Part shown: one piece after another, positions 3,980 through 57,834 of the stretch
Layout: each line of letters starts with the position of its first letter
How positions within the stretch are numbered: the first letter of the stretch is position 1
Assembly (NCBI GenBank): GCA_046583455.1
Contig: JAYGCG010000094.1
Location: 2,121-66,120 of the forward strand
From: Dehalococcoidia bacterium
Lineage (GTDB): Bacteria; Chloroflexota; Dehalococcoidia; Lucifugimonadales; Lucifugimonadaceae
DNA length: 64,000 nucleotides
Reading direction: 5' to 3'
The notes under the pieces: model-generated
Told to the model about the DNA's origin: nothing
What the model saw: the letters and a program-made list of their open reading frames with translations, nothing else
Database searches by the model: none
Program-made: the position numbers and the translations under genes

Positions 3980-4116
3980 CCGAAACGACCCTCGAAAACT
4001 GTCACGGGTAATCGGCTTTTGACCCGGCTTCGTGCGCTAACTAAACTATCGGTGCTTCCGACGATCTGACGGTCGATGTGTAGAGGTCGGACGCATCAAA
4101 CAGCGGAGGAACCGAC

Positions 4117-4761
4117 TTGACGACAAAAAACGTTATTAAGACCGAGATTTTTATCGACTTCACCTGACCGTGGGTCAAGCAGGCGGGCAGTTGGCTCGCT
4201 GACGTGAAGGAAGAACTTGGCGACGAGCTGGAGATAACCTGGCGGAGTTTTGCTCTCGAGCAGGTGAACAGCAAAGAAGGCGATGACTGGAAGGCGTGGG
4301 AGCAGGGCCCGGACTACGAGAGCCGTGGACTGCTCGCACTGTGCGCCGGTGAAGCGTCCAAGAGCCAGGGCAACAAACTGCACAACGTGTTCTTTATGAA
4401 CCTGCTTGAGGCACGTCACGTGGATCGTAAAGACGTCCGTGAGCGAGACGTGATTCTTGAGATCGCCCGAGATAGCGGTCTGGACATGGACAGCTTTGAG
4501 AAAGAACTGGACGACCCCGAGACCCTGAAGAAGGTTGGCGCGGACCACGAACGGGCCGCAGAGCTGGGTATCTTCGGCACGCCTACATTCGTGTTTGAGG
4601 ACGCTCCCCCGACCTTTGTGAAGACCTACACGCCCCCGAAAAATGAGGCCGTTGCGACATTCCGTCACTTCATCGCCCTTTCGCGGGACAGTAAACTTTT
4701 CGGCGAGATCAAGCGCCCGCAGCCGCCGTGGCCGCGGGGCGTTTTCGACGACGACAAGTAG
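4117..4761 (+). CDS. DsbA/FrnE-like thiol-disulfide oxidoreductase, candidate selenoprotein (in-frame TGA 4165-4167 read as Sec)
   Basis: The ORF track starts at GTG 4204, which lacks any redox motif. The same frame upstream reads TTG 4117 (GGAGGA at 4105-4110, 6-nt spacer) 'TTKNVIKTEIFIDFT-TGA-PWVKQAGSWLADVKEELGDELEITWRSFALEQ'. This matches the FrnE N-terminus pattern '..IxxDFxCP[FW]C....L.......V.V.WRSF.L', with TGA at the first Cys. C-terminal 'GIFGTPTFVF' is typical of DsbA-like proteins. Confidence 0.7.
4174..4203 (+). promoter_or_regulatory. SECIS-like hairpin downstream of the in-frame TGA
   Basis: Starts 7 nt after TGA 4165-4167. Left arm GTCA(A)GC(A)GGC pairs with right arm GCT(C)GCTGAC (9 bp including one G-U, plus one bulge and one A.C mismatch). 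The 9-nt apical loop GGGCAGTTG contains GUUG. Folded by eye only. Confidence 0.45.
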
Positions 4762-4770: not shown

Positions 4771-5532
4771 GTGCCCGGGCATTTTGCAGATGATGTACGT
4801 CTGGGTGAGCTTGAGGAGCGACTTGGTGTCCGGTTCAAGGACAGGTCGCTTCTCAGGCTCGCGCTCACGCATAGCTCGTACCTGAACGAAAATCCTTCGG
4901 AGTCTCTCGAATCTAACGAGAGGCTTGAGTTTCTGGGTGATGCTATTCTCGGCGCCGGAATCGGGCACCACCTCTTCCATGATGCCCCGGAAGCGGAAGA
5001 AGGCGACCTCACTGCGATTCGCTCGCAGGTCGTCCGAGAACGCGCTCTTGCGCTGGCCGCAGGGCGGATCGGCCTGGGCGGTTACTTAACCCTTGGCCGA
5101 GGTGAAGACGCCAACGGCGGACGTGAAAGACCGTCAATCATGGCGGATGCCCTTGAAGCCGTGATCGGCGCAATCATGGAAGACCAGGGCTACGAAGTGG
5201 CCTCGGAATTTGTCGTCCGTTGCTTGGAGCCGGAACTTACTGCGGCGATGAGCGCAGGATCGCCAAAGGATCCGAAGTCGTTGCTTCAAGAGCGAGTCCA
5301 GGCCAATGGCGCAGCTCCGCCTGCATACCGGGTCCTGCGAGAAGACGAACAGGACGAACGCGGACGGTTCACAGTGCAAGTGTTGATCGCGGGAAACGTG
5401 ATCGCCACCGGAGTCGGGCGCAGGAAGCTGGATGCTGAACGTATGGCGGCGAGTAAGGCACTCGAATCCGAAGAATTCACGATATTCCCGACAGATCACG
5501 GCGTTTCCGGCACCGCTCACGACGATAATTGA
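4771..5532 (+). CDS. rnc: Ribonuclease III
   Basis: RNase III signature 'ERLEFLGDAIL', catalytic 'ADALEAVIGAI', C-terminal dsRBD-like segment. Confidence 0.9.
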   Translation: MPGHFADDVRLGELEERLGVRFKDRSLLRLALTHSSYLNENPSESLESNERLEFLGDAILGAGIGHHLFHDAPEAEEGDLTAIRSQVVRERALALAAGRIGLGGYLTLGRGEDANGGRERPSIMADALEAVIGAIMEDQGYEVASEFVVRCLEPELTAAMSAGSPKDPKSLLQERVQANGAAPPAYRVLREDEQDERGRFTVQVLIAGNVIATGVGRRKLDAERMAASKALESEEFTIFPTDHGVSGTAHDDN

Positions 5533-6716: not shown

Positions 6717-9211
6717 ATGACTGAAACCCTGCGCTGGCTGGTGACTGTAGAAGTTATCGGCCTCATTACGCTGCCGATCGTATGGCTATCATTGCCATAC
6801 CCTCGCGACCGCGGCGCGGGACTTGCCAAGCCTTTGGGGCTGATCCTGGTGGGCGGGACCGTGTGGCTCGCCAGCGATATGGGCCTGCTTCCAAACTCCG
6901 GCGCGGCGTACTGGCTCGTGACCGCCGTATTTGCAGGGGTTTCAGTGTGGATACTCCGGGGACGCCGGCATCGGTTCGGCCGATTTGTGAGAAAAGAGTG
7001 GCCGGCGTTGCTCGCCGGAGAGCTCCTGTTTCTCCTGTTTTTCGCCGCATGGGCCTTTATCAGGTCTCACCAACCTGACATCTCCGGCACCGAGAAACCG
7101 ATGGAGCTGCTGATGCTCAACGCGGTCACGGTCTCGGGAAGCGCACCTCCCGCAGACCCCTGGCTGGCGGGCGAGCCGGTGGCCTACTACTATTTTGGGT
7201 ACTGGATTCTCGGCGGCATCGGACAGATGGCAGGGGTGGTGACATCGGTCGGATTCAACCTGTCGCTGGCACTGATCGCCGGAATGGCGGCGTCTGCGGC
7301 GTTCTCCGTGGCGTACGGAATGATCCTGCCCGGTCGTATCCGAGATCGAGCCGCGCTCCCGATCGCTGCGTCTGCTGCCGTGCTGTTGCTCGTGGCGTCC
7401 AACTACACGGGTCTCTGGGAGTTCGGGGCCGGAACATCGCTCGGCTCAGAAGGTTTTTACGACTGGCTCGCAATCAAAGACGTGACGATAGAAGGCGTCG
7501 ATGGCGGGGCTACCGCCAACAGTTGGCGACCCGACAACTACTGGTGGTGGTGGCATTCATCGCGGGTCATCAACACGTTCGATATCGTGCCGATCGCGGC
7601 AACAGATTCCGGCCTGGATTTCACCATCCAGGAGTTTCCGTTCTTCAGCCTGCTGCTGGGGGACCTGCATCCGCACCTGATATCGATCCCGTTCCTGCTG
7701 CTCGCTCTTGGCCTCGTGCTGAACCTGTTCTTGACCCCGGGCGCCGGGAGACCGGGCCGGATGATTGGACAGCCGATGCAGTGGTTGTTGCTGTCGATCA
7801 CACTCGGAGCGCTGGGCTTCATCAATGCATGGGACCTGGGCTTCGCGGCCGCGCTCGTGTTCATCGTCGTGGCGGTCAAGATGTACCGGGACGAGTCGAT
7901 GGCCCTTCTGCTAGCCGTGTTCAGGGGTCTGCTGACGACGTTGCTTGTCCTCGGTCTAGGGGTTGCGATATTTGCCGGTTTCTACTTCGGGACGTTCAGC
8001 AGCCAGGTGGACTGGAGCGCTCCGATAGGCGCTGCGAGGTACGCGACGAGGCCGATCCACATGCTCACGGTCTGGGCCATGTTCGTGGTCCTGCTCGCAC
8101 CCCTCTGGTTAACGGTTTCCGTTCGAGTGGTGCGAGCTTATGTTCACCGGGTCAGGTCCGAGCGAGACGACGCTGGGGCTGGCGATCTGGATGGTGGCGC
8201 CTCGTCCGGCGTCACAAATTCAGAACCTGTTGGACGGGCGGACGCAGCCCCGGCGATGGCCGTGTCGCTGGCGCTCGCCGTCCCGTACGTCCTCTGGGCG
8301 ATTGTGCATCTGTCCACGAACGACTCCGCTACGAACTCAGACCTTTCCGGCGCGCCCTGGACGTGCTTCCGCTCGCCGTCCTGTCGGGGCTGTCCATGCT
8401 CGCCTTGCTCTACTACGCCCGCAGATCTGTTTCGGACACGCTGGTGTTTGCTCTGGCGCTGCTCGCGATGGCCCTTTACATGGTTTACGGGGCGGAACTC
8501 CTGTACATCAATGACCTGTTTGCCAACCGCATGAACACGGTTTTTAAGCTGTACTACCAGGTGTGGATAGTAGTGGGAGTGGTCGGAGCATACGGACTTC
8601 ATTTCTGGGTGCGCAGCCATGAGAATTGGAGTGGTATTCGCCGATCTGTAAGTGAAACCGGAGCCGTGATCGCTGCCGTAATGGTGTTAGGGGCGTTGTA
8701 CTATCCGGCAGCTTCTCTGGACACCAGGACAAACGGGTTCTCCGGGGAACGAAGCCTGGACGGGACGGCATTTATAGCAAATTTGTGGGCGACAGAGTCC
8801 TCTGCGATCGAGTGGCTGTCAGAAAACGCACGCAAGGATGCCGTACTGGTAGAGGCGGTTGGAGGCAGTTACACAGATTTTGGGCGTATCTCGTCTTCCA
8901 CTGGGATACCGACGGTGCTGGGATGGACATTCCACGAGGAACAGTGGCGTGGCGGTCGTTCCTCGTTTGACGGACGGCAGGGGGATGTGGAGCGTATTTA
9001 TGCCACTGGTTCTGAGGAAGAAATTGACGAGACGAGGGCAATTCTGAAACGCTACGAGATCGACTACATAGTTGTTGGCCCTCGCGAACGGTCTACGTAC
9101 CCCGATCTTGACCTTGATCGCCTTACGCAGATCGGCGAACGTGTCTATCCGGTCGACGGGATAGATTTTGGGCCGCGTGATTACGTAATAATTGACGTTG
9201 GCGGGAGTTAA
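6717..9211 (+). pseudogene. YYY-domain (DUF2298 / TIGR03662-like) polytopic membrane protein, interrupted by an apparent 1-nt frameshift near 8325-8340
   Basis: 'EPVAYYYFGYWILGG' YYY motif. ORF 6717..8534 looks membrane-like up to '...VPYVLWAIVHLSTND', then degenerates into Cys/Arg-rich junk. ORF 7523..9211 is junk until 'RYELRPFRRALDVLPLAVLSGLSML...', then looks membrane-like, with the C-terminal 'TVLGWTFHEEQWRG' block. The frame changes from 0 to 2 (mod 3), consistent with a 1-nt deletion or a base-calling error. Confidence 0.6.
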
Positions 9212-11459
9212 CGCATTGACCGGAGAAGAGTCGACGACCTCATCTGTGTACGGACGCCCGACGGCATCGATCGCGGGCGTAACCGTTCGCGGCCGATGGG
9301 AAAGCGGTCGCTGGGTCGAGATCGTTCCGACAGGTGATGGTGATTGGCCAGAGACCGGCCCTCTGGATTCAGGACCAGAACTCGAGGAGTCGCCGCCCGT
9401 AAGAGGGGGCGGTTGGCGACGCGACCTGCCGTTCCGATGGGAGTTCGGCGCATATCTTGCGCTGATCCTGGTCGCACTTGCGATGCGGCTGTACGACCTG
9501 GGAGGCCGAGCGGTCCATCATGACGAGAGTCTCCACGGCTACTTCTCGTGGTTGCTTTTCAACGGATCTGGTTACACGCACGATCCGCTTATGCACGGCC
9601 CGTTCCTGTTTCACATCACGGCGGGGTCCTTCTTCCTCTTCGGCGACAACGAGTTCAGCCTCAGGCTTGCTCCGGCGTTATTTGGCGCCGTGCTGACCCT
9701 CACGCCGCTGTTGCTCCGGAAACGTCTTGGCAACGTATCAGCGTTGCTCATCGCGGGGATGCTGGCGTTTTCGCCTTCGCTGCTCTACTTCAGCCGCTTC
9801 GCCCGCAACGACATCTTTGTTGCGGTGTGGACGGTCCTGCTTGTGGCGATGGTTTGGCGCTACATGGACGACCGCAAACACCGATATATTTATTTCACAG
9901 CGGCACTCGTTGCACTGGGTTTCGCCACCAAGGAAACGCAGTTCATAGTTGTGGCAGTGGTCGCGATACCGTCGCTCGTCATGGCACGCTCGGATGTGCT
10001 CGGCTGGATCTGGGGCCGGCGGAAGATATCTGAATGGAACCCGGCCGGCGGGATGCTGGTCGTTATCGTGACCTTGACCCTGCCGATGATCGGTGCAGCG
10101 TCCGGTCTGCTCCAGGGCGCACTTGGCCTCACACTTGCCAACGATGACGTTTCTACGGGACTGCCTCTTGGCGTCGCTGATGGGACAGGCGAGATTGTCG
10201 CCATGGCGATCACGGCATTTCTCATAACTGTCGCCGTCGTGATCGGTGTGATGTGGAATCGACGGGTGTGGCTCATCGGGTTTGCTATAGCGGCGAGCAT
10301 TTTCGTTGTGCTCTACAGTTCGATATTTACGAACTGGGGCGGGCTCGCATCCGGCCTATGGCAGGGCCTCGGTTACTGGGTGGCGCAGCAGGACGTGGCA
10401 CGCGGCGGACAGCCTGACTACTACTACGTGATGCTGACCAGCGTGTACGAATTCCTTCCGGCGACGATAGGCCTGGTAGCGGCCGTTTATTACGCCTTCA
10501 AGGGCGACGTGTTTACCCGATTTCTCGCGTACTGGCCGCTGGCGACGTTCGCCGCTTACTCGGTGGCGGGCGAGAAGATGCCGTGGCTGGAAGCTCAGGT
10601 GGTTCTGCCATTTATATTCCTGGCCGGGAAGGCGCTCGGAGACCTCCTGACCGCCCTTCACTGGAAGCCGTCACTATCGCGCGGCGGATACTACGTCTTC
10701 GCCGGCGTGCCGATCGCTGTGATCGTTTTGTGGAGATTGATCTTCCTGAACGACGGCCAGCCGGGACTTGGCGGTCTTGGAGTGGGTGCCGGCGCTGTGG
10801 TGCTTTTTGGCGTTCTGGCGCTGTTGGTGGTGGGATTGTTCTGGCTTACACGCCGTATCGGCTCACGCCAGGCGTTCGGACTCACCGGCGTGGCTGTTGT
10901 CGGGTTGATGGCGATACTCACCGTGAGGACGGGCTGGGTGGCGACCTACCAGGACCCGGATGTCCCGACCGAGCTTCTTATTTACACCCAGACATCGCCT
11001 GCGCTCGCAGATCTGGCACAGGAAATAGAAGCGGCGGCGAGCCTTACCCGTAAGGGTGAGGGCATGAAGGTCATTATTGACGGCGCCAGCGGCTTTACCT
11101 GGCCCTGGACCTGGTACCTGCGTGACTATACCGATGTCTCTTATACGAACCTGGGATTTGCTCGTCCGGAAGGGCCAAGTGACGCGTATGTGGCGATCGT
11201 TCACACACGTAACGAAAACATCGCAAAACCCGCCACTGGAGAAGGCTTCACTGAGGGGCGTAGATTCCCTCACCGTCAGTGGTTCCCGGAGACGTACAAG
11301 CGGACGACCTGGAGCCAGTTCTTCAATACGCTGGTACGCCCGAATCGGTGGCAAAACGCGTTGAACTTCTTCGTGTACCGAGAGATGTCGCAGCCGATCG
11401 GCTCCGAGGACGCGTTTGTCTACTTCGACGACAGCATCCCGCTTAGAGCGCTGGAATGA
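9192..11459 (+). CDS. Large polytopic membrane protein, ArnT/PMT-like GT-C fold (TIGR03663-like)
   Basis: Many TM helices. The 'VHHDESLHGYFSW' loop after the first TM is, from memory, typical of the TIGR03663 family that accompanies YYY-domain proteins. Start uncertain (TTG 9192/9198/9216 or GTG 9243). Confidence 0.55.
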   Translation: MTLAGVNALTGEESTTSSVYGRPTASIAGVTVRGRWESGRWVEIVPTGDGDWPETGPLDSGPELEESPPVRGGGWRRDLPFRWEFGAYLALILVALAMRLYDLGGRAVHHDESLHGYFSWLLFNGSGYTHDPLMHGPFLFHITAGSFFLFGDNEFSLRLAPALFGAVLTLTPLLLRKRLGNVSALLIAGMLAFSPSLLYFSRFARNDIFVAVWTVLLVAMVWRYMDDRKHRYIYFTAALVALGFATKETQFIVVAVVAIPSLVMARSDVLGWIWGRRKISEWNPAGGMLVVIVTLTLPMIGAASGLLQGALGLTLANDDVSTGLPLGVADGTGEIVAMAITAFLITVAVVIGVMWNRRVWLIGFAIAASIFVVLYSSIFTNWGGLASGLWQGLGYWVAQQDVARGGQPDYYYVMLTSVYEFLPATIGLVAAVYYAFKGDVFTRFLAYWPLATFAAYSVAGEKMPWLEAQVVLPFIFLAGKALGDLLTALHWKPSLSRGGYYVFAGVPIAVIVLWRLIFLNDGQPGLGGLGVGAGAVVLFGVLALLVVGLFWLTRRIGSRQAFGLTGVAVVGLMAILTVRTGWVATYQDPDVPTELLIYTQTSPALADLAQEIEAAASLTRKGEGMKVIIDGASGFTWPWTWYLRDYTDVSYTNLGFARPEGPSDAYVAIVHTRNENIAKPATGEGFTEGRRFPHRQWFPETYKRTTWSQFFNTLVRPNRWQNALNFFVYREMSQPIGSEDAFVYFDDSIPLRALE

Positions 11460-11544
11460 CGATCGGTCCGTACACGGAACAGGCATCAATATGGGATCGG
11501 ACACGCGGCCAGTCGGGCAGCCAATCGGACAGTAGAATAAGTCG

Positions 11545-12648
11545 GTGATCTCCCAGCGAAGTGTGTGGGCCGGGCTCGTAGTTAGCGTAGCCTTCCTCAC
11601 GGTATTTGCGCTCCTGTTTCTTCCGATAGACGACGTGAAAGAAGTCGTGCGTGAGGCCAACTTCTGGTACGTCGCCCCATCGCTCCTCTTCTACCTCGCC
11701 GCCGTCTACTTTCGCAGCCTGCGCTGGCGGTACCTGCTCAAGCCCCTGATCGGGCGCCCCAAACGGGCGTTGTTCCCGGTGGTGGTGGTTGGCTATATGG
11801 CTAACAACATCCTGCCAGTGCGGCTGGGTGAAGTCATCCGGTCGTACTACGTGGGACTGCGAGAAGGGGTCAACCCGGCATCTGCGTTTGGCACGGTCGC
11901 AGTCGAGCGAGTGTTCGACGTGTTCGTGTTGTTCTTCGTCATTGCGGCGGTTTGGGTGTTGCCAGTGGGCGATCTGCTTGGGCGCGTCGCTGACGACCTG
12001 CCCGGCGGTACGCCGGTGTTGTTGGCGCTTTCCGTGCTCCCGTTCATAGGGGTCACTGCGATAATCGTAGTAATCGTCGTACTTGATCCCGCTACGACGG
12101 TCCGGCTGATCGCGCGGATGATGTTTTTCGTGCCAGCCGGGATCAAGGAGAAACTCCTCGGCCTTGCCGGTCGGCTCCTTGAGGGCCTGACCGTCGTGAG
12201 GACGCCGAGGGCTCTGGTCGCTGTGCTCCTTCTGTCTCTTCCGATCTGGGCGGCCGAAGTGTCGATGCTGTACGTGATAGCACTCGGATTCGATATCGAT
12301 TCTGCTTTCGGAGGGCGTGTAGAGATGATCGCTGCGATCAGCCTGTTTATGGCGATCGCCAACCTGGCTCTGGTGGTTCCATCGACGGCCGGTGGCGTGG
12401 GGCCGTTCAACTTTTTTGGCGCAGCAACGCTCGTCGCGCTCGGCATAAACGAGGCGGAGGCGGGCGCGTACGTTTTGACGGCGCACATAGCCTTGTTGCT
12501 GCCGGTCACGTTGTTGGGCCTGGTCGTTCTCCTGCTTGATCACACCTCTCTGAAATCGCTCCTGGGGCGAACCCGGCTGGCACAGCAGGGTAAAGGAGGC
12601 GACGATTTGACCGATAACCCTCCTATTCCAACGAAATCGTCTACATAA
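11545..12648 (+). CDS. Flippase-like / lysylphosphatidylglycerol-synthase-TM (UPF0104) family membrane protein
   Basis: 'YFRSLRWRYLL' and 'GYMANNILPVRLGEVIRSYY' family motifs; 8 or more hydrophobic segments. Confidence 0.7.
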   Translation: MISQRSVWAGLVVSVAFLTVFALLFLPIDDVKEVVREANFWYVAPSLLFYLAAVYFRSLRWRYLLKPLIGRPKRALFPVVVVGYMANNILPVRLGEVIRSYYVGLREGVNPASAFGTVAVERVFDVFVLFFVIAAVWVLPVGDLLGRVADDLPGGTPVLLALSVLPFIGVTAIIVVIVVLDPATTVRLIARMMFFVPAGIKEKLLGLAGRLLEGLTVVRTPRALVAVLLLSLPIWAAEVSMLYVIALGFDIDSAFGGRVEMIAAISLFMAIANLALVVPSTAGGVGPFNFFGAATLVALGINEAEAGAYVLTAHIALLLPVTLLGLVVLLLDHTSLKSLLGRTRLAQQGKGGDDLTDNPPIPTKSST

Positions 12649-12711
12649 AAGGCGCTCCTGCGGAGTCGGTCGTATTCCAGAACACATGTACACAAAAATG
12701 AAAGTAAATAG

Positions 12712-14022
12712 ATGCGAATAGGTGTGATAGGCGCAGGCGCGGCGGGACTTGCGGCGGCATACGATTTCGCCAGAGCGGGCCACGGCGTCACCGTCTACGA
12801 GGCCGCGCCATTCGTTGGCGGACAGGCGTCGACCATCGAGGTCGGAGGCGGGCGGCTGGAACGCGGGTATCACCATCTGTTCACCAACGACAGCGCCATC
12901 CTTGGCCTGATGGATGAACTGGGCATCGGCGAATCGATGCGGTGGATACCCTCCAGTGTTGGCATTTACACAGACCACAAGGTGTATCGCTGGAGCACGC
13001 CGATAGACCTGCTGAGGTTCAGCGCACTGTCCTTTCGTGATCGGATTCGCATGGGGATGGTCGCCAAGAAACTCCAGCGCATGAAAGATTGGCGGGCGCT
13101 GGAAGACACCACGGCCGCTGAATGGATCCGAGAGAACGCCGGGGCGTCGATCTACTCAAAGGTCTGGGAGCCGCTTCTACGTGGCAAGTTCGGTGACCGA
13201 TTCGAAAGCGTCGGCATGCCCTGGTTCTGGAGCAAGATCCAGACCAGGTTCGCATCTCGTGATCGACTAGGCCGGGAGAAGCTCGGGTACCCGGTAAACA
13301 GCTTCGACGAGGTTTTTGAAACCCTTGAGGATCGCATCAAATCCATGGGGGGAAAGGTTCATCTCGAAACCCCAGTAACCCGTGTGCTGGTCGAGGACGG
13401 TACGGCGACGGGATTAAGGGTCAAATACCCGGATGGCGCCGAGACTGAAGAAAGCTTTGACCTTGTCCTGTCCACCGTCCCTTCCTTCGTGTTTCCCGGG
13501 ATGGTGGATCTGCCCGAGACTTATCTGAAGAAGTTGGGCGCGGTTGAGTACATGGGCGCCGTGGTCATGATCCTTGAGATGACGCACCCACTGACGTCCG
13601 TTTACTGGATGAACATCGCCGATCACGAGGTGCCGTTTCTGGGTCTGATCGAGCACACAAACCTGATGCCAAAAGAGTTGTACGGCGGCAGCAACGTCCT
13701 GTACCTGACCAACTACGTCGAGCGCCAGAGTGAGCTCTTCCTGATGTCAGACGAAGAACTGCTTGATGTGTACGCCCCGTGGCTGCCGCGATTTAACAGT
13801 GAGTTTGATCGATCATGGATCACTCGCGTCCACGTGAACCGGGTGAGCGCCGCCCAGCCGGTAATCGGCACGAACTACTCGCAGCACATTCCGGAGCACC
13901 AGACGCCCATTTCAAAGCTGTTCCTGGCGAATACGACGCAGATCTATCCGGAGGACCGAGGTACGAACTACAGCATTCGCATGGGGCGAGAGGTCGCCGC
14001 GACGATGTTGCGGGGTGTCTGA
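12712..14022 (+). CDS. NAD(P)/FAD-dependent oxidoreductase (amine-oxidase / phytoene-desaturase-like fold)
   Basis: N-terminal dinucleotide-binding motif 'RIGVIGAGAAGLAAAYDFARAGHGVTVYEA..FVGGQA'. Confidence 0.7.
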   Translation: MRIGVIGAGAAGLAAAYDFARAGHGVTVYEAAPFVGGQASTIEVGGGRLERGYHHLFTNDSAILGLMDELGIGESMRWIPSSVGIYTDHKVYRWSTPIDLLRFSALSFRDRIRMGMVAKKLQRMKDWRALEDTTAAEWIRENAGASIYSKVWEPLLRGKFGDRFESVGMPWFWSKIQTRFASRDRLGREKLGYPVNSFDEVFETLEDRIKSMGGKVHLETPVTRVLVEDGTATGLRVKYPDGAETEESFDLVLSTVPSFVFPGMVDLPETYLKKLGAVEYMGAVVMILEMTHPLTSVYWMNIADHEVPFLGLIEHTNLMPKELYGGSNVLYLTNYVERQSELFLMSDEELLDVYAPWLPRFNSEFDRSWITRVHVNRVSAAQPVIGTNYSQHIPEHQTPISKLFLANTTQIYPEDRGTNYSIRMGREVAATMLRGV

Positions 14023-15975: not shown

Positions 15976-16482
15976 TTGAGCGACGGAATAACGTCCGCCA
16001 GCGACGAGTTGCCCTCCAGTGATGAACTGAGAGATCGGTCACGAAAGGCGCTGCAATCCCAGCAGCAGCCCACGGTCACCGTGCTCTCTTCACTGCTCGC
16101 AGTCCAGGATGACCTCCATTACATCCCGGATGAGGCCATAGAAGAGACCGCCACGCACGTGAAATCCACCATCAACGATGTGTGGAGTGTTGCGTCGTTC
16201 TACACGAATTTCAGATTCACGCCGCCGGGAGATCACACGATAGACGTGTGCTGGGGTCCGTCTTGCCACCTGAACGGCGCTCAGGATGTGATAAATAGAG
16301 TTCATTCCGAGCTCGGGGTGACAGAAGAAGGCGAGACGGCCGACGGTAAATTGACACTTCGGTATAGCACTTGCCTCGGAGCCTGCGCTCTTGCGCCGGT
16401 GATAGCGGTGGACCATCACATGAAGGGCCGCATGTCGCCCGATTCGGCGGCGGCGCTCGTTGGCAAGCTGAAGGGCGCTTAG
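15976..16482 (+). CDS. NuoE/FdsG/HoxE-type thioredoxin-like [2Fe-2S] subunit
   Basis: 'CWGPSCHLNG' and 'CLGACALAPV' cluster-binding motifs. Confidence 0.8.
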   Translation: MSDGITSASDELPSSDELRDRSRKALQSQQQPTVTVLSSLLAVQDDLHYIPDEAIEETATHVKSTINDVWSVASFYTNFRFTPPGDHTIDVCWGPSCHLNGAQDVINRVHSELGVTEEGETADGKLTLRYSTCLGACALAPVIAVDHHMKGRMSPDSAAALVGKLKGA

Positions 16483-16543
16483 TGAGAAACTCCTCCCTGA
16501 CCCAAACCCAGACCCAGACGCGGGCAGACCGAAGTAGGGCCGT

Positions 16544-18262
16544 ATGTCTGTAGTTTTCTCTGAACTGCGCCAGAAGGCTGACGCCGAGTGGGTCTCACTG
16601 ACCGCGGGTGACAGGCCGTGGGTCAGGGTCGGCCTGGGCACCTCGGGGGAGGCAGCCGGAGCAGAGGAAGCCTACGACGCATTAACCGAAGCGCTTGGCT
16701 CGGACGCCAACGTGACACTGGTCGGGTCTATGGGGCTCTGCTACGCCGAGCCACTTATCGACGTTCAACTGCCCGGTGGGGCACGTGTCTTCTACGCAAA
16801 CCTCGGCGCAGATGAGGTAGCCGACGTTATTGGCGGCCACATCAAATCCGGCCGGGCCAACGCCGATCGGGCGTTCGCTTGGCATGGCGACGAACGTCCG
16901 GAAGGCCTCGGCGCGGTCACCCGTCTTTCTGAGCTACCTACAGTCCGCGTTCAGACCCGGCTGGCGACGAAACTAGCCGGCGATATTGATCCACGAGACC
17001 TGTCTCAATACATCGCAAACGGCGGATACAGCGCGCTTGAAAAGGCTCTTGAGGATATGGACCCGGCGGGAGTGCTGGACGAGGTCAAAAACTCTGGCCT
17101 GCGGGGCAGGGGAGGGGCCGCATTCCCGACCGGCGTCAAATGGGGATTCCTCGCACCCAATCCGGCGCCCGTGAAGTACATCCTCTGCAACTGTGAAGAG
17201 GGCGACCCCGGAGCATTTAACGACAAGGGCATTCTTGAGAGTTGCCCGCATACCCTGCTTGAGGGGTTGATCCTGGCCGGGTATGCCACCAACTCCTCAA
17301 ACGGCTTCATCTTCATCCGGCAGGGCCACTCTCTTCCGATAGAGAACTCACGGAAGGCCGTGCAGGACGCTTACGCGGCAGGGCTTCTCGGGCAGAACAT
17401 CCTCGGCAGCGATTTCAGCTACGAGGTCGAGATCGCGCTTACGGGTGACTCGTACGTAGCGGGGGAAGAAACTGCGTTGATGGAGGCCATCGAGGGCAAG
17501 CGCTCGATGCCTCGTTACCGGCCGCCGTTCCCCGCCGCCGAGGGGCTATGGGGCAAGCCGAGCAACATCAACAACGTCAAGACGTTGGCCTACGCTCCGA
17601 CGATCATTCAGAACGGCGCCGATGCCTTCAAGAGTATCGGAATCGAATCTACCTCCGGCACTGCGATCCTCTGTATTACCGGAGCGGTGAACAGGCCGGG
17701 GATGTACGAGATTCCAATGGGGTCTCTTACAATTCGTGAGGTCGTCGAGGAGGTGGCGGGCGGCATTAAAGACGGCAAGAAGATGAAGTTGTTCCAGGCT
17801 GGCGGACCCCTGTTCGGGCCGATCGGCGAGGAAGGCTTTGACACTCCAATTGACTTCGATTCGATCAACCAGACCACCGGCAGCCTCGGCTCCGGCGGCA
17901 TCATCATCGGCGACGAAGACGTATGCGCCGTTAACCTGACCCGAAACCTTATGGCGTTCAACCAGTTCGAATCATGCGGCAAGTGCTTCCCATGTCGCCT
18001 CGGCATGACGCACATGGTCGAGACCCTGGAACGAATCTCGCAGAATGTGGGTAGGGAAGACGATCTGGCTCTTATGGAACGGATGGGCGCCAGCATGCGA
18101 ATGGGTTCCCTTTGTGGGCATGGACAGCTTGGCTACAATCCGGTTGCATCCGCACTCAAGTATTTTGAAGCAGATTTCCGGTCCCACATGGACAACAAGA
18201 AATGCCCGACGGGCGCGTGCGGCGACGGACAGATGGTGACCCCGAGCCGGACGAGGCCTTAA
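16544..18262 (+). CDS. NuoF/FdsB-type NAD(H)-binding FMN, 4Fe-4S subunit
   Basis: 'GLRGRGGAAFPTGVKW' and 'CNCEEGDPGAF' NADH/FMN site; 'ESCGKCFPCRLG' 4Fe-4S motif. Confidence 0.85.
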   Translation: MSVVFSELRQKADAEWVSLTAGDRPWVRVGLGTSGEAAGAEEAYDALTEALGSDANVTLVGSMGLCYAEPLIDVQLPGGARVFYANLGADEVADVIGGHIKSGRANADRAFAWHGDERPEGLGAVTRLSELPTVRVQTRLATKLAGDIDPRDLSQYIANGGYSALEKALEDMDPAGVLDEVKNSGLRGRGGAAFPTGVKWGFLAPNPAPVKYILCNCEEGDPGAFNDKGILESCPHTLLEGLILAGYATNSSNGFIFIRQGHSLPIENSRKAVQDAYAAGLLGQNILGSDFSYEVEIALTGDSYVAGEETALMEAIEGKRSMPRYRPPFPAAEGLWGKPSNINNVKTLAYAPTIIQNGADAFKSIGIESTSGTAILCITGAVNRPGMYEIPMGSLTIREVVEEVAGGIKDGKKMKLFQAGGPLFGPIGEEGFDTPIDFDSINQTTGSLGSGGIIIGDEDVCAVNLTRNLMAFNQFESCGKCFPCRLGMTHMVETLERISQNVGREDDLALMERMGASMRMGSLCGHGQLGYNPVASALKYFEADFRSHMDNKKCPTGACGDGQMVTPSRTRP

Positions 18263-18336
18263 ACGAAATAGCCGCCAGTTGAATGGCGGCGAACGAAAGT
18301 TCATTCGAAAAACGAATTCCCAGGAGACTGCGCCGC

Positions 18337-21120
18337 ATGGCGGACGACACGATCAAATTTACGGTAGACGGCCAGGAGATCGAGGCCAAACCTGGCCAGA
18401 CGATCATCCAGGCTGCGCAGGACGCGGATATCTACATCCCGTACCTTTGCTACTTCCCTGGAATGAAGCCGTACGGCGCCTGCCGCATGTGTGTGGTGTC
18501 CACCGAGACCGGTGGCCGCAAGGGCATTCAGGCTTCCTGTACTACTCCTGTCATGGCAGACATGATCGTGGAGACAAACAGCGAGGAGGTTGTGGATCTC
18601 CGGCGTGGAATTACCGATCTGCTCATGTCCGAGCATCCGCACGGCTGCCTGACCTGCCACCGTGCCGAATTGTGCGGCCCCCAGGACATCTGCCAGCGCC
18701 ACGTGGCCGTGACCGACCGCTGTACCATCTGCCCCAAAAACGAGCGATGTGAGCTTAAGGACACCGTCCGCTTCATGAAGCTGGACCTGAACTCTTCGCT
18801 CAATTACCACCGGCGTGACCTTCCGATCCACACCGACGACCCGTTCTACGACCGTGACTACAACCTGTGCATCGTCTGCGTCCGCTGTGTACGTGCATGC
18901 GACGAAGTACGCGGTGACACCGCTCTATCGCTGGTGTCCCGTTCAGGAGTTGCTCTCGTAGGCACGTCCCGCGGCACTTCGCTTCTTGAGTCCGGGTGCG
19001 AGTTCTGCGGTGCCTGTATAGATGCCTGTCCCACCGGCGCGCTGGTAGAGCGCGACTACAAATGGGAGAAAGCGTCCACCAAGGTCAAGACCGTCTGCAC
19101 AAACTGCCCCGTCGGGTGCGAGTTCGTGATGGACATCAATGACATAAACAAGGTCGTCCGCATGACGGGCGACCTGTCGGGCGAGGCCGGCCACGGCCAG
19201 GCTTGCTTCAAGGGCAAGTTCGGGTACGACTACCCGAACCACGTTCGTCGGTTGAAGTACCCGATGGTACGCATCGACGGCGAGCTGAAGCGCACTACCT
19301 GGGAGGTTGCCCTTGAGGCGGCGTCTCAGGGTCTTTCACAGCATCTTCCTGAAGAGCGCGGTGTAATTCTCTCGCCACGTGGCACCAACGAAGATCACTA
19401 CGTTGGCCAGAAGTTTGCACGAACGGTGCTCGGCACAAACAACGTGGATACCGGGCTCAACCGGTCAGCAGAGCTGCTGGCAACACTCGCGGCAGCGCCG
19501 GGCCACGGAACTGCCACGAACCCGATCTGGGGTATCGAGAGTTCGAAGTGTGTCCTGGTCGTCGCCGGCAACCCGACGGAAGAGCAGAACGTGCTCGCCG
19601 TGCCGGTGAAGAAGGCCGTGCGCGCTGGCGCAAGTTTGATCGTTATCGACCCACGTGAGACCGAGCTGACCCGCTACGCAACTAACTGGCTCCGCCCACG
19701 GCCCGGGACCGAAATCACGCTGCTGGGTGGGTTGGCCCGGGTGATCCTGGACGAAGCGCTTGAGGACAAGGATTTTGTCCGGGACCGGCTTGATGGACTG
19801 GACGAGTTCAAAAAGGCGATCTGGTCCTTTGATCTGATGCGAGTTTCCCAGATAACCGGGGTAACCGAAGACGAAATTCGGTCCGCAGCGAGGGCGTACG
19901 GCAACGGAAGTCCGGCTTCGCTCTTGCATGGTACGGATGGGGTCGTCGCCGAGGACCACGCAGACCTTCTGGCCGCAGTAATGAACCTGGCGCTGATGAC
20001 CGGAAACATCGGTCGCGTTGGCGGCGGGGTCTACCCGTTGTACTCAGGAGCCAACACGCAAGGCGGCAATGATGTCGGCGCTGCGCCGGATCTGCTGCCG
20101 GGTTACAGGTCTGTCTCTTCAGACACCGACCGCGACGCGATCTCATCAGCAGCCGGCGGCACGTACCCGCAACGGCCGGGTATATCCGTCCGGGAGATGG
20201 TGGCCGGTAACGGCATCAAAGCGCTGGTTGTACTGGCGGACGGATGGAATCCAGACGTCGCAGGAATGACGACAGACGGCCTGGACAACCCGGGATTCAT
20301 GGTCGTGTCCGATGCGTTTATGTCTGATACGGCCTCCAGAGCGGACGTAGTGCTCCCCGCTGCGACTTACGCCGAGGTGTCCGGGACGATCACGAACCTG
20401 GAGCGGCGTGTCCAGAAGGTCAATCCGGGACTTGAGCTTCGCCACGAAGAGCGTGAGGGCTGGCGGACACTTGCTGCTCTCGCGAACGCCATGGGCGGTT
20501 CCGGCTTCGAATACGAATCTTCTTCGGAAGTATTTGAGGAGATCCGAAAAGTGGTCCCGGATTACGCCGGACTCACTCACTCCCGACTTGAAGGCAGGGG
20601 TATTCAGACGCCGGCACGTGATGAAGCATCACGCGGCACAGAAATCATGTTCAGTTCGGAAGAGCGGCTTTCGGTCGTTCCCATGGCTATCCGTGAACCC
20701 ATTTCCCTGCCGAACGGCGAATATCCGTTCACGCTGGGTCATGGACGCGTATTGCTACGTCCAGAAGAGGATTTGCAGGTCGTTCGGGATGAACGGAGCA
20801 TGAACTACATAGAGCGGGATACATTCATAGAGATCCATCCTGAGGATGCAACAGATCTTGACGTTTCTGAAGGGGATCGAGTCGCCATAAACGCACAACT
20901 GGACGCATCTGCGTCACCGTTGCCTGAGTTCGGTTACGTAAGACTGTCATCGCCACATCGTGGATTTGTTTCCGTGACGACACTGTTCGCGGAAGTCGTC
21001 ACCGGCATCCAGGATTCCGGTGATATTGACATCTCGCCATCGGTCAGAGGCCTTCCATTGCGCCATGTATCGCTGGCGAAAGCGCCGGTACTGCGCGAAG
21101 CTGGTATGGCTGCAGACTGA
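18337..21120 (+). CDS. NuoG / formate dehydrogenase alpha-like molybdopterin-fold subunit; Sec/Cys-His active-site dipeptide not conserved
   Basis: N-terminal 2Fe-2S ferredoxin, 'HPHGCLTCHRAELC', 'CIVCVRCVRAC', 'CEFCGACIDACPTGAL', 'CTNCPVGCEF'. The block 'KFARTVLGTNNVDTGLNRSAELL' aligns with FdhF 'KFARAVIGTNNVDCCARVUHGPS', giving Ser-Ala where U/C-His is expected. Start moved to ATG 18337, which has AGGAG 10 nt upstream. Confidence 0.75.
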   Translation: MADDTIKFTVDGQEIEAKPGQTIIQAAQDADIYIPYLCYFPGMKPYGACRMCVVSTETGGRKGIQASCTTPVMADMIVETNSEEVVDLRRGITDLLMSEHPHGCLTCHRAELCGPQDICQRHVAVTDRCTICPKNERCELKDTVRFMKLDLNSSLNYHRRDLPIHTDDPFYDRDYNLCIVCVRCVRACDEVRGDTALSLVSRSGVALVGTSRGTSLLESGCEFCGACIDACPTGALVERDYKWEKASTKVKTVCTNCPVGCEFVMDINDINKVVRMTGDLSGEAGHGQACFKGKFGYDYPNHVRRLKYPMVRIDGELKRTTWEVALEAASQGLSQHLPEERGVILSPRGTNEDHYVGQKFARTVLGTNNVDTGLNRSAELLATLAAAPGHGTATNPIWGIESSKCVLVVAGNPTEEQNVLAVPVKKAVRAGASLIVIDPRETELTRYATNWLRPRPGTEITLLGGLARVILDEALEDKDFVRDRLDGLDEFKKAIWSFDLMRVSQITGVTEDEIRSAARAYGNGSPASLLHGTDGVVAEDHADLLAAVMNLALMTGNIGRVGGGVYPLYSGANTQGGNDVGAAPDLLPGYRSVSSDTDRDAISSAAGGTYPQRPGISVREMVAGNGIKALVVLADGWNPDVAGMTTDGLDNPGFMVVSDAFMSDTASRADVVLPAATYAEVSGTITNLERRVQKVNPGLELRHEEREGWRTLAALANAMGGSGFEYESSSEVFEEIRKVVPDYAGLTHSRLEGRGIQTPARDEASRGTEIMFSSEERLSVVPMAIREPISLPNGEYPFTLGHGRVLLRPEEDLQVVRDERSMNYIERDTFIEIHPEDATDLDVSEGDRVAINAQLDASASPLPEFGYVRLSSPHRGFVSVTTLFAEVVTGIQDSGDIDISPSVRGLPLRHVSLAKAPVLREAGMAAD

Positions 21121-21254
21121 TCGTCCGTGTTGTCCCGCGAGGGTTCACACGATCGGAGAAAATCAGATCTGCATCTTGAAAACGCTTCCCGAATCTAACT
21201 AGACGGAAAGCACGAAAATGGCCTCGTGCAGATACACGGGACCAACTAGGAGAA

Positions 21255-21584
21255 ATGATGAGCAAGCCCGCCGCTGTCACGGACAGCAGTTTTGATGTTG
21301 AGGTACTCCAGTCCGACCTACCGGTACTGGTAGATTTCTGGGCTGACTGGTGTGGTCCCTGCAAGATGGTGGCCCCGGTTGTAGAAGAGTTGGCGGCCGA
21401 ATATGAGGGAACGGTCAAGTTCGCCAAGGTAGATGTAGACGCGAACCCGGTGACCGCCGGAAAGTACGGCGTCCGCAGCATTCCGACACTTCTGATTTTC
21501 AAGGACGGAAAGCCCGTCGGTCAGGTCGTCGGAGCTGTCCCGAAACAGGTTCTTGAGGCCCGACTCAAAGAGTCGATCGCCTAG
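21255..21584 (+). CDS. trxA: Thioredoxin
   Basis: '[10 protein letters not shown]' active site, 109 aa. Confidence 0.95.
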
Positions 21585-21616
21585 GTACAGTACCGGCCGG
21601 AAAACGGCATGAAATA

Positions 21617-21650
21617 AAGACAGCCGGTGCCTTAATGGCTCGGCTGTCTT
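21617..21650 (+). terminator. Stem-loop after trxA (possible terminator or processing hairpin upstream of tRNA-Sec)
   Basis: Perfect 10-bp arms AAGACAGCCG / CGGCTGTCTT around a 14-nt loop, 32 nt after the trxA stop. No U-tract follows. Confidence 0.4.
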
Positions 21651-21735
21651 CGCGTTCCCGGGCATTTTTGAACGATTGGCCGCGGGCGGTTCGTCGCTGC
21701 CGGTCGGGGCGGCGTAAACTGTCCCGGCCTACCAA

Positions 21736-21833
21736 GGGAGTGTATGGGCTCTGGTGGGCTCCACGGACTTCAAACCCGATGGGGGGCATCCTTCGATGTC
21801 CTCGGGGGGTTCGACTCCCTCACGCTCCCGCCA
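21736..21833 (+). tRNA. selC: tRNA-Sec (anticodon UCA), 98 nt with encoded CCA
   Basis: 8-bp acceptor GGGAGTGT/ACGCTCCC. 6-bp D stem (GGGCTC/GGGCTC with G-U pairs) and 4-nt D loop TGGT. Anticodon loop CTTCAAA. 7-bp extra arm GGGCATC-CTTC-GATGTCC. T arm GGGGG-TTCGACT-CCCTC. Discriminator G, CCA at 21831-21833. Weak point: the anticodon stem is only 3+3 bp, with a bulge and an A.C closing mismatch. Confidence 0.85.
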
Positions 21834-31321: not shown

Positions 31322-32134
31322 TTGGCCTCGATGACAGAGCAACCCGTAAAAACACCCCGACCTGAACGCGTCCAGCTATTTGTGACCTGCCTCGTTGACC
31401 AGTTTCGACCGGAGGTCGGCGAGAGCGTGGTCAATGTCCTTGAACGTCTCGGTATCCAGGTCGATTTCCCGGAGGGCCAGACCTGCTGCGGACAGCCTGC
31501 GTTCAACTCGGGTTTCTGGAATGAAGCAAGCGACGTAGCTCGGCACTTTCTTGACGTATTCGACGCTACCGAAGGCCCAATCGTCGTGCCGTCAGGCTCC
31601 TGCGGTGCGATGGTCAGGAACTTCTACGGCGAGATGTTTGAGGACGACCCGGCGGAGATGGAGCGCGTACGGCGTGTAAGCGAGCGCATCTACGAATTCA
31701 CGGAGTTCCTGGTGGACGTGCTCGGGCAGGACGATCTTGTCACAAATTTAGGCCCGCACCTGGACGAAACCGCCACTTACCACCAGTGTTGCCATCTCGA
31801 ACGAGAACTCGGTGTAGACCATCAGCCACAGCAGTTGCTCAAGCAGATCGAAGGGCTGGAGATGCTTCCGATGAATCGGCCAGAGGTTTGTTGTGGGTTT
31901 GGCGGGACATTCGCCGTGAAGTTTTCCGATGTTTCAACGGCCATGCTCAACGAAAAACTCGACAACGCAGCGGCTACCGGAGCATCGATGATCGTGGCCG
32001 GGGACACCGGCTGCATCATGCATATGGCGGGAGGCCTGAGACGCCGTGGCTCAGATCAGCAGGTCCGCCACATAGCCGAAATCCTGGACGAGGCCACCAG
32101 TTTGGATAAAAACAATACCGGGGCGCAGACCTGA
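31322..32134 (+). CDS. lutA: Lactate utilization protein A (CCG-domain Fe-S oxidoreductase)
   Basis: 'LFVTCLVD', 'GQTCCGQP', 'CCGFGG' CCG motifs. ATG 31331 is an alternative start. Confidence 0.85.
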   Translation: MASMTEQPVKTPRPERVQLFVTCLVDQFRPEVGESVVNVLERLGIQVDFPEGQTCCGQPAFNSGFWNEASDVARHFLDVFDATEGPIVVPSGSCGAMVRNFYGEMFEDDPAEMERVRRVSERIYEFTEFLVDVLGQDDLVTNLGPHLDETATYHQCCHLERELGVDHQPQQLLKQIEGLEMLPMNRPEVCCGFGGTFAVKFSDVSTAMLNEKLDNAAATGASMIVAGDTGCIMHMAGGLRRRGSDQQVRHIAEILDEATSLDKNNTGAQT

Positions 32135-33573
32135 TGCTTCCAACGACCGACCGCTTCAAAAAGGGCGCTAAAGAGACACTCGCCGACCCGGTAATCCAGA
32201 TGTCCATGGAGGCCGTGTACACCGGCTTCCACACCAATCGGCAATCGGCAGCCGCCGCTACGGAAGGATGGGACGAGCAGCGCGACCGGGGCCGGGCGAT
32301 CAAAGAGCACACGATCGCCAACCTCGACTACTACCTGGAGATGTTGACGGACAAAATCGACGAAAATGGCGGAAACGTCTTCTTCGCCAATGACTCGGCG
32401 GAGGCGACCGAGTACATCCTGAACGTGGCGCGCGCCCGAGCCGTGAAGACCGTCATTAAGAGCAAATCCATGGTGTCTGAGGAGATGAGCCTCGCCCATG
32501 AGATGGAGGCGGTCGGTATCGAGGCCGTCGAGACCGACCTCGGCGAGTACATTATTCAGCTCGCCGGCGAAACGCCGTATCACATCATCGCTCCGGCGAT
32601 ACACAAATCCCAGGACCAGGTCGCCGAGATGTTCTCCGAGATGACCGGCACCGACCCCGGGCAGACTCCCGAAGAATTGACGACCACGGCCCGCGGGATG
32701 CTGAGAGAGACGTTCCAGAGAGCCGATATGTCGGTCACCGGCGTCAATTTCGCCGTCGCCGAAAGTGGCAGCATTGTCCTCGTCACAAACGAGGGCAACG
32801 GACGCATGTGTACGTCGATCCCGCGTGTGCACGTCGCCGTGATGGGCATGGAGAAGATCGTTCCGTCAATGCAGGACCTCGGGATGATGCTGCGTATTTT
32901 AATCAGGTCGGCAACGGGCCAGCGAATCAGCAGCTACGTCACGATGATCAACGGCCCGAGACGCGAGGAGGAGGAGGACGGACCGGAAGAGTTCCACCTC
33001 GTGATCGTAGACAACGGCCGAATGCAACTACTGGCTGATCCGAAGCTACGTGAGGCCCTTTACTGCCTCCGTTGTGGCGCATGTTTGAACGCCTGTCCGG
33101 TGTATCGGAAGGTCGGTGGTCACAGTTATGGTTGGGTTTACCCGGGACCGATCGGCGCCGTGGTGTCTCCTGTGATGTCCGGGCTGAAACAAGGCAAGGA
33201 CCTGCCCTTCGCATCTTCCCTGTGTGGTGCGTGTCGGGAGGTGTGCCCGGTAAAGATCGACATCCCGAACATGCTTTTGCACCTTCGCCAGCAGGTCGTG
33301 GAGGGTCCGCCAGAAGATCGCAGCGTTGGCCGGATCGAACGCTTGGGCTGGAAGGCTTGGCGGTTTGGGAATATGAAGTCGAGCAGATTCCGGGCGGGCG
33401 GCAAGCTGGCGAATTTGCTGGGGCGACCATTTGCGCGGAAAGGTATGTTCAGTCGGCTTCCCCCGCCGCTCTCCGGCTGGACCCGCAGCAGGGATTTGCC
33501 GATCACGGCGTCTTCACCATTTAGAGATCGCTTCAAGAAACGTCGGCCCAACAGTTCCGGGGGTGAGGAGTAA
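32134..33573 (+). CDS. lutB: Lactate utilization protein B (4Fe-4S)
   Basis: 'CLRCGACLNACPVY' and 'CGACREVCPVKI' ferredoxin motifs plus a LUD domain. Start overlaps the lutA stop. Confidence 0.85.
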   Translation: MLPTTDRFKKGAKETLADPVIQMSMEAVYTGFHTNRQSAAAATEGWDEQRDRGRAIKEHTIANLDYYLEMLTDKIDENGGNVFFANDSAEATEYILNVARARAVKTVIKSKSMVSEEMSLAHEMEAVGIEAVETDLGEYIIQLAGETPYHIIAPAIHKSQDQVAEMFSEMTGTDPGQTPEELTTTARGMLRETFQRADMSVTGVNFAVAESGSIVLVTNEGNGRMCTSIPRVHVAVMGMEKIVPSMQDLGMMLRILIRSATGQRISSYVTMINGPRREEEEDGPEEFHLVIVDNGRMQLLADPKLREALYCLRCGACLNACPVYRKVGGHSYGWVYPGPIGAVVSPVMSGLKQGKDLPFASSLCGACREVCPVKIDIPNMLLHLRQQVVEGPPEDRSVGRIERLGWKAWRFGNMKSSRFRAGGKLANLLGRPFARKGMFSRLPPPLSGWTRSRDLPITASSPFRDRFKKRRPNSSGGEE

Positions 33574-55643: not shown

Positions 55644-55697
55644 GGGTCGTTCACTTATCCCCGGATTGCCGGAATTGGTGACGATTGATCAAGTACG

Positions 55698-55729
55698 TGC
55701 ATATAAACATTTCCTTATATGTTGGTCAA
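55698..55729 (-). promoter_or_regulatory. Promoter/operator P1 (upstream of the ArsR-MTase-metF unit)
   Basis: Minus strand reads TTGACC, 17 nt, TTATAT. The spacer and -10 carry the palindrome TGCATATAAA-CATTTC-CTTATATGTT (7/10 arm match). One of three near-identical sites. Confidence 0.65.
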
Positions 55730-55779
55730 GCTGAATCGAAAACACGTTTGCAACCGGTTCGTCTCGCAGGGAAACGGGA

Positions 55780-57411: not shown

Positions 57412-57501
57412 TGGTTAGTCAGTTTCTCGCTGAGGTGTGTTGAGTAAACCGCTGTGGGCGTTCTTTGAATGCTTGGGATTTCAAGAGCCGGTGGAAGAGG
57501 C

Positions 57502-57768: not shown

Positions 57769-57834
57769 GTTGACCTCCTCCCTGGATCAGGGTTGGCCAA
57801 TGTCTTGCCGTCGATTATCTATGTGGGAGCGCTA

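Follow-up and report, generated by a model that had tools for sequence, protein, structure and literature searches.

An in-frame UGA in a DsbA-like gene of Dehalococcoidia: a probable selenoprotein with a single-nucleophile T-U-P-W-V centre

DsbA-like selenoproteins are known from the sea. Forms with a UxxC active site, in which U is selenocysteine (Sec), were described from the Sargasso Sea in 2005 (PMC1088965), and the marine selenoproteome from Global Ocean Sampling (GOS) data contained a group called 'DsbA 3' (pfam01323) with the motif UxxV, represented by 5 Sec sequences and 72 Cys homologs (Zhang & Gladyshev 2008, PMC2398784). A 2026 review lists a 'DsbA-like protein form 2' (PF01323) with the motif DxxUP (PMC13188914). 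The FrnE subfamily is defined by a C-P-[WF]-C active site, often combined with a C-terminal CxxxxC (PMC8945050). Metagenome-assembled genomes of Dehalococcoidia are among the most selenoprotein-rich bacteria, with 46-49 selenoprotein genes (PMC13326102), and Dehalogenimonas has the Sec trait (supplement of PMC5029168). Here we describe a gene at positions 4117-4761 of a 64,000-nt stretch of DNA from a Dehalococcoidia bacterium (assembly GCA_046583455.1, contig JAYGCG010000094.1, positions 2,121 to 66,120; this whole stretch is called the window, and all coordinates refer to it). We conclude with high confidence that 4117-4761 is a single gene for a 214-residue cytoplasmic DsbA-like thioredoxin-fold protein, the catalytic residue of which, residue 17, would be Sec specified by the UGA at 4165-4167.

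An earlier note on this DNA had joined the frame through a single TGA back to a TTG start with a nearby GGAGGA, and we obtained the same reading of the frame and of the product around U. The start, TTG 4117-4119, is preceded by GGAGGA (4105-4110) with a spacer of 6 nt, and the frame runs to a TAG ending at 4761 with only one in-frame TGA, at 4165-4167. The joined product is MTTKNVIKTEIFIDFT-U-PWVKQAGSW..., 214 aa in length. For this frame the mechanical list of open reading frames (ORFs) held only the truncated version already pointed out in the earlier note, from GTG 4204 to 4761 (185 aa). When Cys was put at the TGA, the joined product matched Pfam DSBA (PF01323) with 64.4 bits (cut-off 25.6; E = 1.5e-17). 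The alignment pairs residues 10-163 with profile positions 3-175 of 191 and spans the TGA together with the active-site strand and helix; because it starts before the TGA, the domain needs the segment upstream of it. The elements on which the argument depends are as follows.

4105..4110, + strand: Shine-Dalgarno sequence GGAGGA, 6 nt before the start codon, read from the sequence.
4117..4761, + strand: full coding sequence of the putative DsbA-like selenoprotein, 214 aa plus TAG, with a TTG start, Sec as residue 17 and a PF01323 match; tblastn matches of relatives cover residues 1-211.
4165..4167, + strand: UGA, putative Sec codon for residue 17 in the motif T-U-P-W-V, at the Cys column of homologs; TGA in 82/82 related Sec-type loci.
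4182..4200, + strand: SECIS-like hairpin (SECIS, selenocysteine insertion sequence), with a 7-bp stem 4182-4188/4194-4200 and the apical loop AGUUG at 4189-4193; -10.6 kcal/mol.
4579..4584, + strand: codons for Thr155-Pro156 of the invariant G-T-P-T, where a thioredoxin fold is expected to have its cis-Pro loop; from knowledge of the fold, this loop would face Sec.
21736..21833, + strand: tRNA-Sec gene, anticodon UCA, found by ARAGORN and by Rfam RF01852.

The TGA is conserved among the relatives of this gene. A search of 5.8 billion proteins returned 594 relatives, the best 120 of which were examined, and a scan of one genome per GTDB species returned 461 related stretches, the best 80 of which were examined. 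These 80 were all from Dehalococcoidia, SAR202 or Chloroflexota, at 49-94% identity, and the tblastn alignments start at residue 1 and continue past the TGA. A TGA stood at the Sec column in 79/79 informative species-level loci and likewise in 3 further loci reached via truncated protein entries, which include NCBI records named 'DsbA family protein'; that is, in every one of the 82 related loci retrieved either as relatives of the Sec form or as truncated calls. The five residues before the TGA (-5 to -1) and the three that follow it (+1 to +3) are invariant while the third codon positions vary, indicating that the segment upstream of the TGA is under coding selection. Of 83 Sec loci, 72 have a start codon (ATG 61, TTG 9, GTG 2) placed exactly 16 codons ahead of the TGA. 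The position of the first start beyond the TGA varies among loci, with codon offsets of 3, 13, 8, 33, 10, 76 and others, so that the N-termini chosen by gene callers differ in length. This scatter argues against a conserved internal initiation site, and hence against a family that begins at the position of GTG 4204.

The catalytic Cys column is the classical site of Sec/Cys exchange, and Cys forms of this protein occupy it. Eight full-length homologs among the best 120 proteins read F-x-D-Y-T-C-P-W-V-R-Q-A-G, with Cys at the TGA column, and TGT or TGC stands at this column in 30 Cys-form loci. The position of a second Cys is Val family-wide, and in the full-length homologs no other Cys is conserved. 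The placement of the TGA on the first Cys of a CPxC motif with Val at the second, as first proposed, is thus the arrangement seen in T-C-P-W-V. The window, the Sec forms and the Cys forms share the gene order cca (reverse), dsbA-like, rnc, ftsY, and the Cys relatives do not replace a missing Sec system. In the window TGA is also the ordinary stop of 26 of the 47 Pfam-supported genes, and the commonest stop there, so any recoding must be local. Taken together, the conservation of the TGA, the selection on its flanks, the Cys orthologs and the use of TGA as a stop rule out that the locus is a pseudogene, that the TGA is a sequencing error and that the codon is reassigned genome-wide. With the hairpin and tRNA-Sec described below, they support the original proposal of a genuine Sec codon rather than a nonsense mutation.

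A low-GC marine lineage (L091-L124, marine metagenome contigs of ~30% GC) carries the Cys form with the motif F-F-D-Y-T-C-P-W-V-R-Q-A-[GN]-[FYH]-W-L-[ILA]. Its Cys forms have diverged where the Sec forms have the 3' arm of the hairpin. The lineage is a possible example of Sec-to-Cys conversion, or of the reverse, linked to genome streamlining.

The tRNA-Sec gene that had been reported in the window was found both by ARAGORN and by RF01852, with 66.5 bits against a gathering score of 47 (E = 2.3e-11). An operon for NuoE-like, NuoF-like and NuoG/FdhA-like proteins precedes it, with ~600 nt between them (15976-21833, + strand, the tRNA gene included). Neither an in-frame TGA nor a [C/U]-H-x-x-[S/T] motif occurs in the 945-aa molybdopterin subunit of this operon; should this subunit be a formate dehydrogenase, it would be of a non-Sec type.

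The hairpin claimed at 4174-4203, just after the TGA, is present, and its core, the 7-bp stem 4182-4188/4194-4200, is conserved across relatives. The whole structure consists of a lower stem (GUCA/UGAC), a bulge of 5 nt and an upper stem capped by the loop AGUUG; the possible 4-bp lower stem pairs 4174-4177 with 4200-4203, alternatively using U4200. The Zhang & Gladyshev model for bacterial SECIS elements asks for a loop of 3-9 nt, a stem of 4-16 bp, a spacing of 16-37 nt, a minimum free energy of -7.5 kcal/mol or lower and a G in the first two loop positions (PMC13188914). The window hairpin falls within all of these limits, with 7 bp, a 5-nt AGUUG loop carrying G-U at loop positions 2-3, 21 nt from UGA to loop and -10.6 kcal/mol. 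A small hairpin that includes the UGA itself (UGACC-GUG-GGUCA, 4165-4177) occurs in some clades only.

For comparison across relatives, we used positions +1 to +48 from the TGA of the Sec loci (72 distinct sequences). A 7-bp stem is present in nearly all Sec forms; it begins ~15 nt after the UGA and places its loop over a Trp codon. Stem sequences differ by clade and fall into three registers. In the main register 82.9% of cells are paired, compared with 17-54% when the partners are slid by 1-3 columns. The pair 21-33 joins the third positions of Ala and Leu codons, both synonymous sites, and occurs as C-G (18), U-A (17), U-G (16), G-C (8) and G-U (5), with 8 sequences unpaired. Folding energy was at or below -7.5 kcal/mol in 69 of the 72 sequences, and the spacing was 17-24 nt in all. 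Compared with synonymous resampling, the Sec-form stem had a mean z of -1.16, with 94% of sequences below zero. Among the Sec lineages with a GC content of 0.45-0.52, 15 of 18 had stems of -11 to -14 kcal/mol with z mostly between -1.3 and -2.6, and the remaining three had weaker stems of -6.5 to -9.3 kcal/mol. The 23 distinct Cys forms averaged -6.1 kcal/mol with z -0.57 (Sec versus Cys, Mann-Whitney on z, p = 0.013). Residues encoded at the 3' arm of the hairpin are variable in Cys forms (L-H-D, L-G-R, L-I-D and others) and kept as L-[A/S] in Sec forms.

Several observations weigh against the Sec reading or limit what can be drawn from the hairpin. The window region taken alone is unremarkable: folding of 4160-4225 gave z = -0.78 relative to dinucleotide shuffles, and the hairpin gave z = -0.75 relative to synonymous resampling, so its significance comes from the comparison across relatives only. 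In that comparison the excess of stability is modest, with its mean z of only -1.16, because the conserved peptide A-G-x-W-L-A already encodes, and so forces, much of the stem. Because one low-GC clade dominates the Cys set, the comparison of Sec with Cys forms lacks phylogenetic independence. Only 20 of the 72 sequences carry a G at loop position 1 or 2, the other 52 having loops such as AUUUG and CUGGUU; a subset of bacterial SECIS elements is known to depart from the model (PMC13188914), and the three registers and non-consensus loops may reflect a lineage-specific mode of SelB recognition. A permissive scan of 4100-4300 against Rfam matched no SECIS family and gave two chance snoRNA matches only. 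Pfam scans of 51 ORFs did not find selA, selB or selD in the 64-kb window, where the machinery is therefore attested by tRNA-Sec only; this absence neither supports nor refutes the assignment. Finally, any function or substrate proposed for the protein is purely inferred. Its closest relative in structure, DR2335 of Deinococcus radiodurans, is itself uncharacterised in function and expression (PMC8945050).

Three other explanations were considered. The TGA could be a nonsense mutation or a sequencing error in a former Cys-type DsbA-like gene, a view that fits the behaviour of gene callers, which take the TGA as a stop and give 4204-4761 only in the ORF list, and the lack of selA, selB and selD among the genes seen in the window. 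It is effectively refuted by the presence of the same TGA in 82 independent assemblies, down to 49% protein identity and with purifying selection on both sides, and neither an invariant F-I-D-[YF]-T peptide nor a fixed start codon upstream of the stop would survive in a pseudogene. The locus might instead make two products, a 16-codon upstream ORF ending at the TGA and a 185-aa DsbA-like protein devoid of a redox centre, begun at GTG 4204 or another internal start. GTG 4204 is indeed present in the sequence, and truncated forms make up 112 of the best 120 database matches; internal starts are nevertheless not conserved, their offsets differing among loci, and the strong Shine-Dalgarno sequence is at 4105-4110 and not before 4204. 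Strand 1 and the active-site turn, both parts of the thioredoxin fold, would also be missing from the shorter protein, and the syntenic Cys orthologs are single continuous ORFs. We therefore regard separate products as extremely unlikely.

A read-through of the UGA by something other than Sec, whether a near-cognate Trp, Cys or Arg or a lineage-specific reassignment, is the third explanation. In its favour, incorporation of selenium at residue 17 is itself inferred, and most hairpin loops of the family lack the consensus G. Reassignment is countered by TGA being the commonest true stop in the window. Against near-cognate decoding stand the position of the UGA at the catalytic Cys column, the presence of a tRNA-Sec gene, and a hairpin at the canonical SECIS distance that the Sec forms have kept and that is weaker in the Cys forms. 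We consider non-Sec read-through very unlikely and retain Sec at residue 17 as the preferred reading.

If the established bacterial mechanism applies, a ribosome reaching the UGA at 4165-4167 would meet the mRNA hairpin 4182-4200, with its AGUUG loop 21 nt downstream, and the hairpin would recruit SelB-GTP-Sec-tRNASec, the tRNA being supplied by the gene at 21736-21833. Sec would then be inserted instead of termination, while UGA elsewhere in the genome would act as a normal stop.

In an AlphaFold2 model (pLDDT 82.7, pTM 0.79) the protein adopts a thioredoxin fold that carries a helical insertion. The model places residue 17 between the strand 7-13 and the helix 20-37, and the invariant G-T-P-T (155-156) comes just before the strand 157-160, so placed that Sec17 would sit opposite a cis-Pro loop. 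The active centre T-U-P-W-V provides one nucleophile and lacks a resolving Cys. With only 6 residues ahead of strand 1 in the model, there is no room for a signal peptide (no dedicated predictor was run), which indicates a cytoplasmic protein. We suggest that the protein is probably a monoselenol reductase or thiol-transferase. Its selenolate may attack a disulfide, a mixed disulfide or another oxidised or electrophilic substrate, and an external thiol, either a low-molecular-weight one or a thioredoxin-type partner, would then resolve the Se-S intermediate so formed. Such chemistry would resemble that of monothiol glutaredoxins or of the glutathione- or mycothiol-dependent cytosolic DsbA-like reductases DsbM and Rv2466c.

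About 45 residues are invariant, and many of these are polar (E48, Q49, N51, S52, K59, Q63, Y67, S69, R70, H89, D106, R108, R110, H144, K169 and the C-terminal tail KRPQPPWP). This pattern of conservation suggests a specific substrate rather than a general oxidoreductase role. On a wider and more speculative view, the protein would be a near-universal housekeeping selenoenzyme of an abundant ocean clade, Dehalococcoidia/SAR202, acting on a specific small-molecule or protein substrate and having a SECIS read by a lineage-specific SelB mode unlike that of E. coli or Moorella. The specific-substrate part of this view draws on the invariant residues and on the tight coupling of the gene to rnc; the combination as a whole we think doubtful.

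The family is systematically mis-annotated. Among the best 120 protein relatives, 112 (~93%) are calls of 176-195 aa with 82-90% query coverage, truncated at the N-terminus, just like the ORF listed for the window, so that the catalytic residue is lost; the entries named 'DsbA family protein' by NCBI are 182-187 aa. The description of this gene as a missed candidate is accurate for gene callers and not for the literature, in which a 'UxxV' selenoprotein family of pfam01323 has been on record since 2008. NCBIfam has no model for the family, the only and weak match being NF041057 (DsbG-like selenolipoprotein) with 31 bits (cut-off 190). Hundreds of Dehalococcoidia/SAR202 entries would be put right by a dedicated profile that flags Sec. 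Biologically this is another Sec-for-Cys exchange in a thioredoxin-fold protein, of a known kind and in a lineage known to be selenoprotein-rich, and will not surprise a specialist. Its main value is in the systematic mis-annotation and in a well-controlled natural data set for SECIS evolution: syntenic Sec and Cys forms, three stem registers and non-consensus loops make the family a natural set for studying the constraints on SECIS elements that lie within coding sequence. The TGA form is carried by complete Dehalococcoidia genomes (for example OZ253938.1, CBDEVT010000001.1 and NZ_CP046146.1) and, at locus L021, by a SAR202 strain in culture, Ca. Lucifugimonas marina JH545, so that the gene is open to experiment.

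Some of the truncated entries bear the name of a cultured organism. Three assemblies (L085, GCA_017113785.1; L086, GCA_964387235.1; L090, GCA_017114025.1) contain the Sec-form gene with TGA and hairpin, and the 187- and 182-aa entries 'DsbA family protein [Dehalococcoides mccartyi]' derive from them. Cultured D. mccartyi/ethenogenes strains are listed without the Sec trait (supplement of PMC5029168). The species label on these entries is probably wrong, and the 182-187-aa annotations are truncated.

Two further features flank the gene.

4019..4047, + strand: sigma-70-like promoter candidate in the divergent intergenic region upstream of the gene (TTGACC, 17-nt spacer, TAAACT), a weak consensus match (1 site versus 0.3 expected).
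4771..5532, + strand: RNase III gene (rnc), 9 nt downstream of the DsbA-like gene.

No terminator-like site was found on the + strand between the DsbA-like gene and rnc, and this, with the 9-nt gap, makes it likely that the two are co-transcribed. A crude scan of the window for other in-frame TGAs gave mostly noise. One suggestive case, a TGA at 30046 on the minus strand that reads 'CPGC*' and shares its frame with a DAO gene, was set aside, since the translation of the frame upstream is junk.

Elsewhere in the window, a DUF2298 membrane-protein gene (6717-9211, + strand) is split over two overlapping + frames, with ORF 6717-8534 matching profile positions 2-390 and ORF 7523-9211 (residues 284-349) matching 421-486; this points to a frameshift near 8230-8370, real or from assembly. 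The longest ORF at 11443-12978 (minus strand, 511 aa) has no family match and is probably spurious, since it is antisense to a clear LPG_synthase_TM protein encoded by the + strand ORF 11545-12648. A LutABC-type lactate-utilisation operon (31322-34307, + strand) consists of genes for a CCG-domain protein, a protein with LUD and 4Fe-4S domains and an LUD protein, followed by an isochorismatase gene. A C1/corrinoid cluster (53785-62927, minus strand) contains MTHFR, an ArsR-fused methyltransferase, the corrinoid activase RACo, a B12-binding protein, a URO-D/MtaA-like methyltransferase, a homocysteine S-methyltransferase-like protein and a pterin-binding protein; it looks like a methyl-group demethylation pathway feeding folate.

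We compared the protein and its hairpin with known systems. Of the earlier assignment as 'DsbA/FrnE-like', the DsbA-like domain stands, by virtue of the PF01323 match, and membership in FrnE or in true DsbA does not. FrnE was ruled out because the centre is U-P-W-V rather than C-P-[WF]-C, there is no second conserved Cys, and the C-terminus KRPQPPWP has no CxxxxC; the match to FrnE in the PDB had an E value of only 0.0055. A periplasmic DsbA was ruled out by the lack of a signal peptide and by a single nucleophile in place of a CPHC-type dithiol. The Pfam Rv2466c-like family gave a marginal 18.7 bits against a cut-off of 27.

The closest relative by profile and by fold is DR2335 (PDB 7DK9; the C24S mutant structure is 7DKA), with E = 1.1e-14 over query residues 7-200, a TM score of 0.77-0.78 and 23-24% identity. 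It too has a single nucleophile (C-P-Y-A versus U-P-W-V), is predicted to be cytoplasmic and ends in a similar '...RRPxP' tail. DR2335 differs in using Cys rather than Sec, in belonging to another phylum and in its low identity, and is a distant relative rather than a member of the same orthologous group. More distant fold neighbours are DsbM, YjbH, kappa-class glutathione S-transferase (GST), HCCA isomerase, FrnE and Rv2466c. FrnE (D. radiodurans), Rv2466c (M. tuberculosis), DsbM (P. aeruginosa) and kappa-class GST/HCCA isomerase share the DsbA-like fold (TM 0.53-0.65), a thioredoxin domain with a helical insertion and a cytosolic location, and work with glutathione, mycothiol or another external reductant; the matched structures of DsbM, FrnE and kappa-class GST are glutathione complexes. 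These likenesses suggest them as mechanistic analogues. FrnE, Rv2466c and DsbM differ in their CxxC motifs, to which FrnE adds the C-terminal CxxxxC, and kappa-class GST and HCCA isomerase use Ser.

Among described selenoproteins, the UxxC form 1 (COG2761/FrnE-like; PMC1088965) has in common with the window protein a DSBA domain, a Sec that takes the place of the first Cys of the active site and, immediately downstream of its UGA, a SECIS hairpin. Form 1 keeps its resolving Cys, whereas the window protein has Val (UPWV) and so cannot form an intramolecular Se-S bond. Compared with the consensus bacterial SECIS, the window hairpin agrees in stem, loop, spacing and energy, whereas most relatives lack the early loop G and their stems fall into the clade-specific registers described above. 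The window family is very probably the published 'DsbA 3 (UxxV)' or 'form 2 (DxxUP)', as judged by motif and domain only: the domain is PF01323, D-F-T-U-P-W-V fits both motifs, and a marine origin and many Cys homologs are shared. The representative of form 2 in the review, MDP6049977.1, carries an odd 'crotonase' label. In contrast to the 5 Sec sequences of 'DsbA 3' in the GOS data, the family appears near-universal in Dehalococcoidia/SAR202 genomes.

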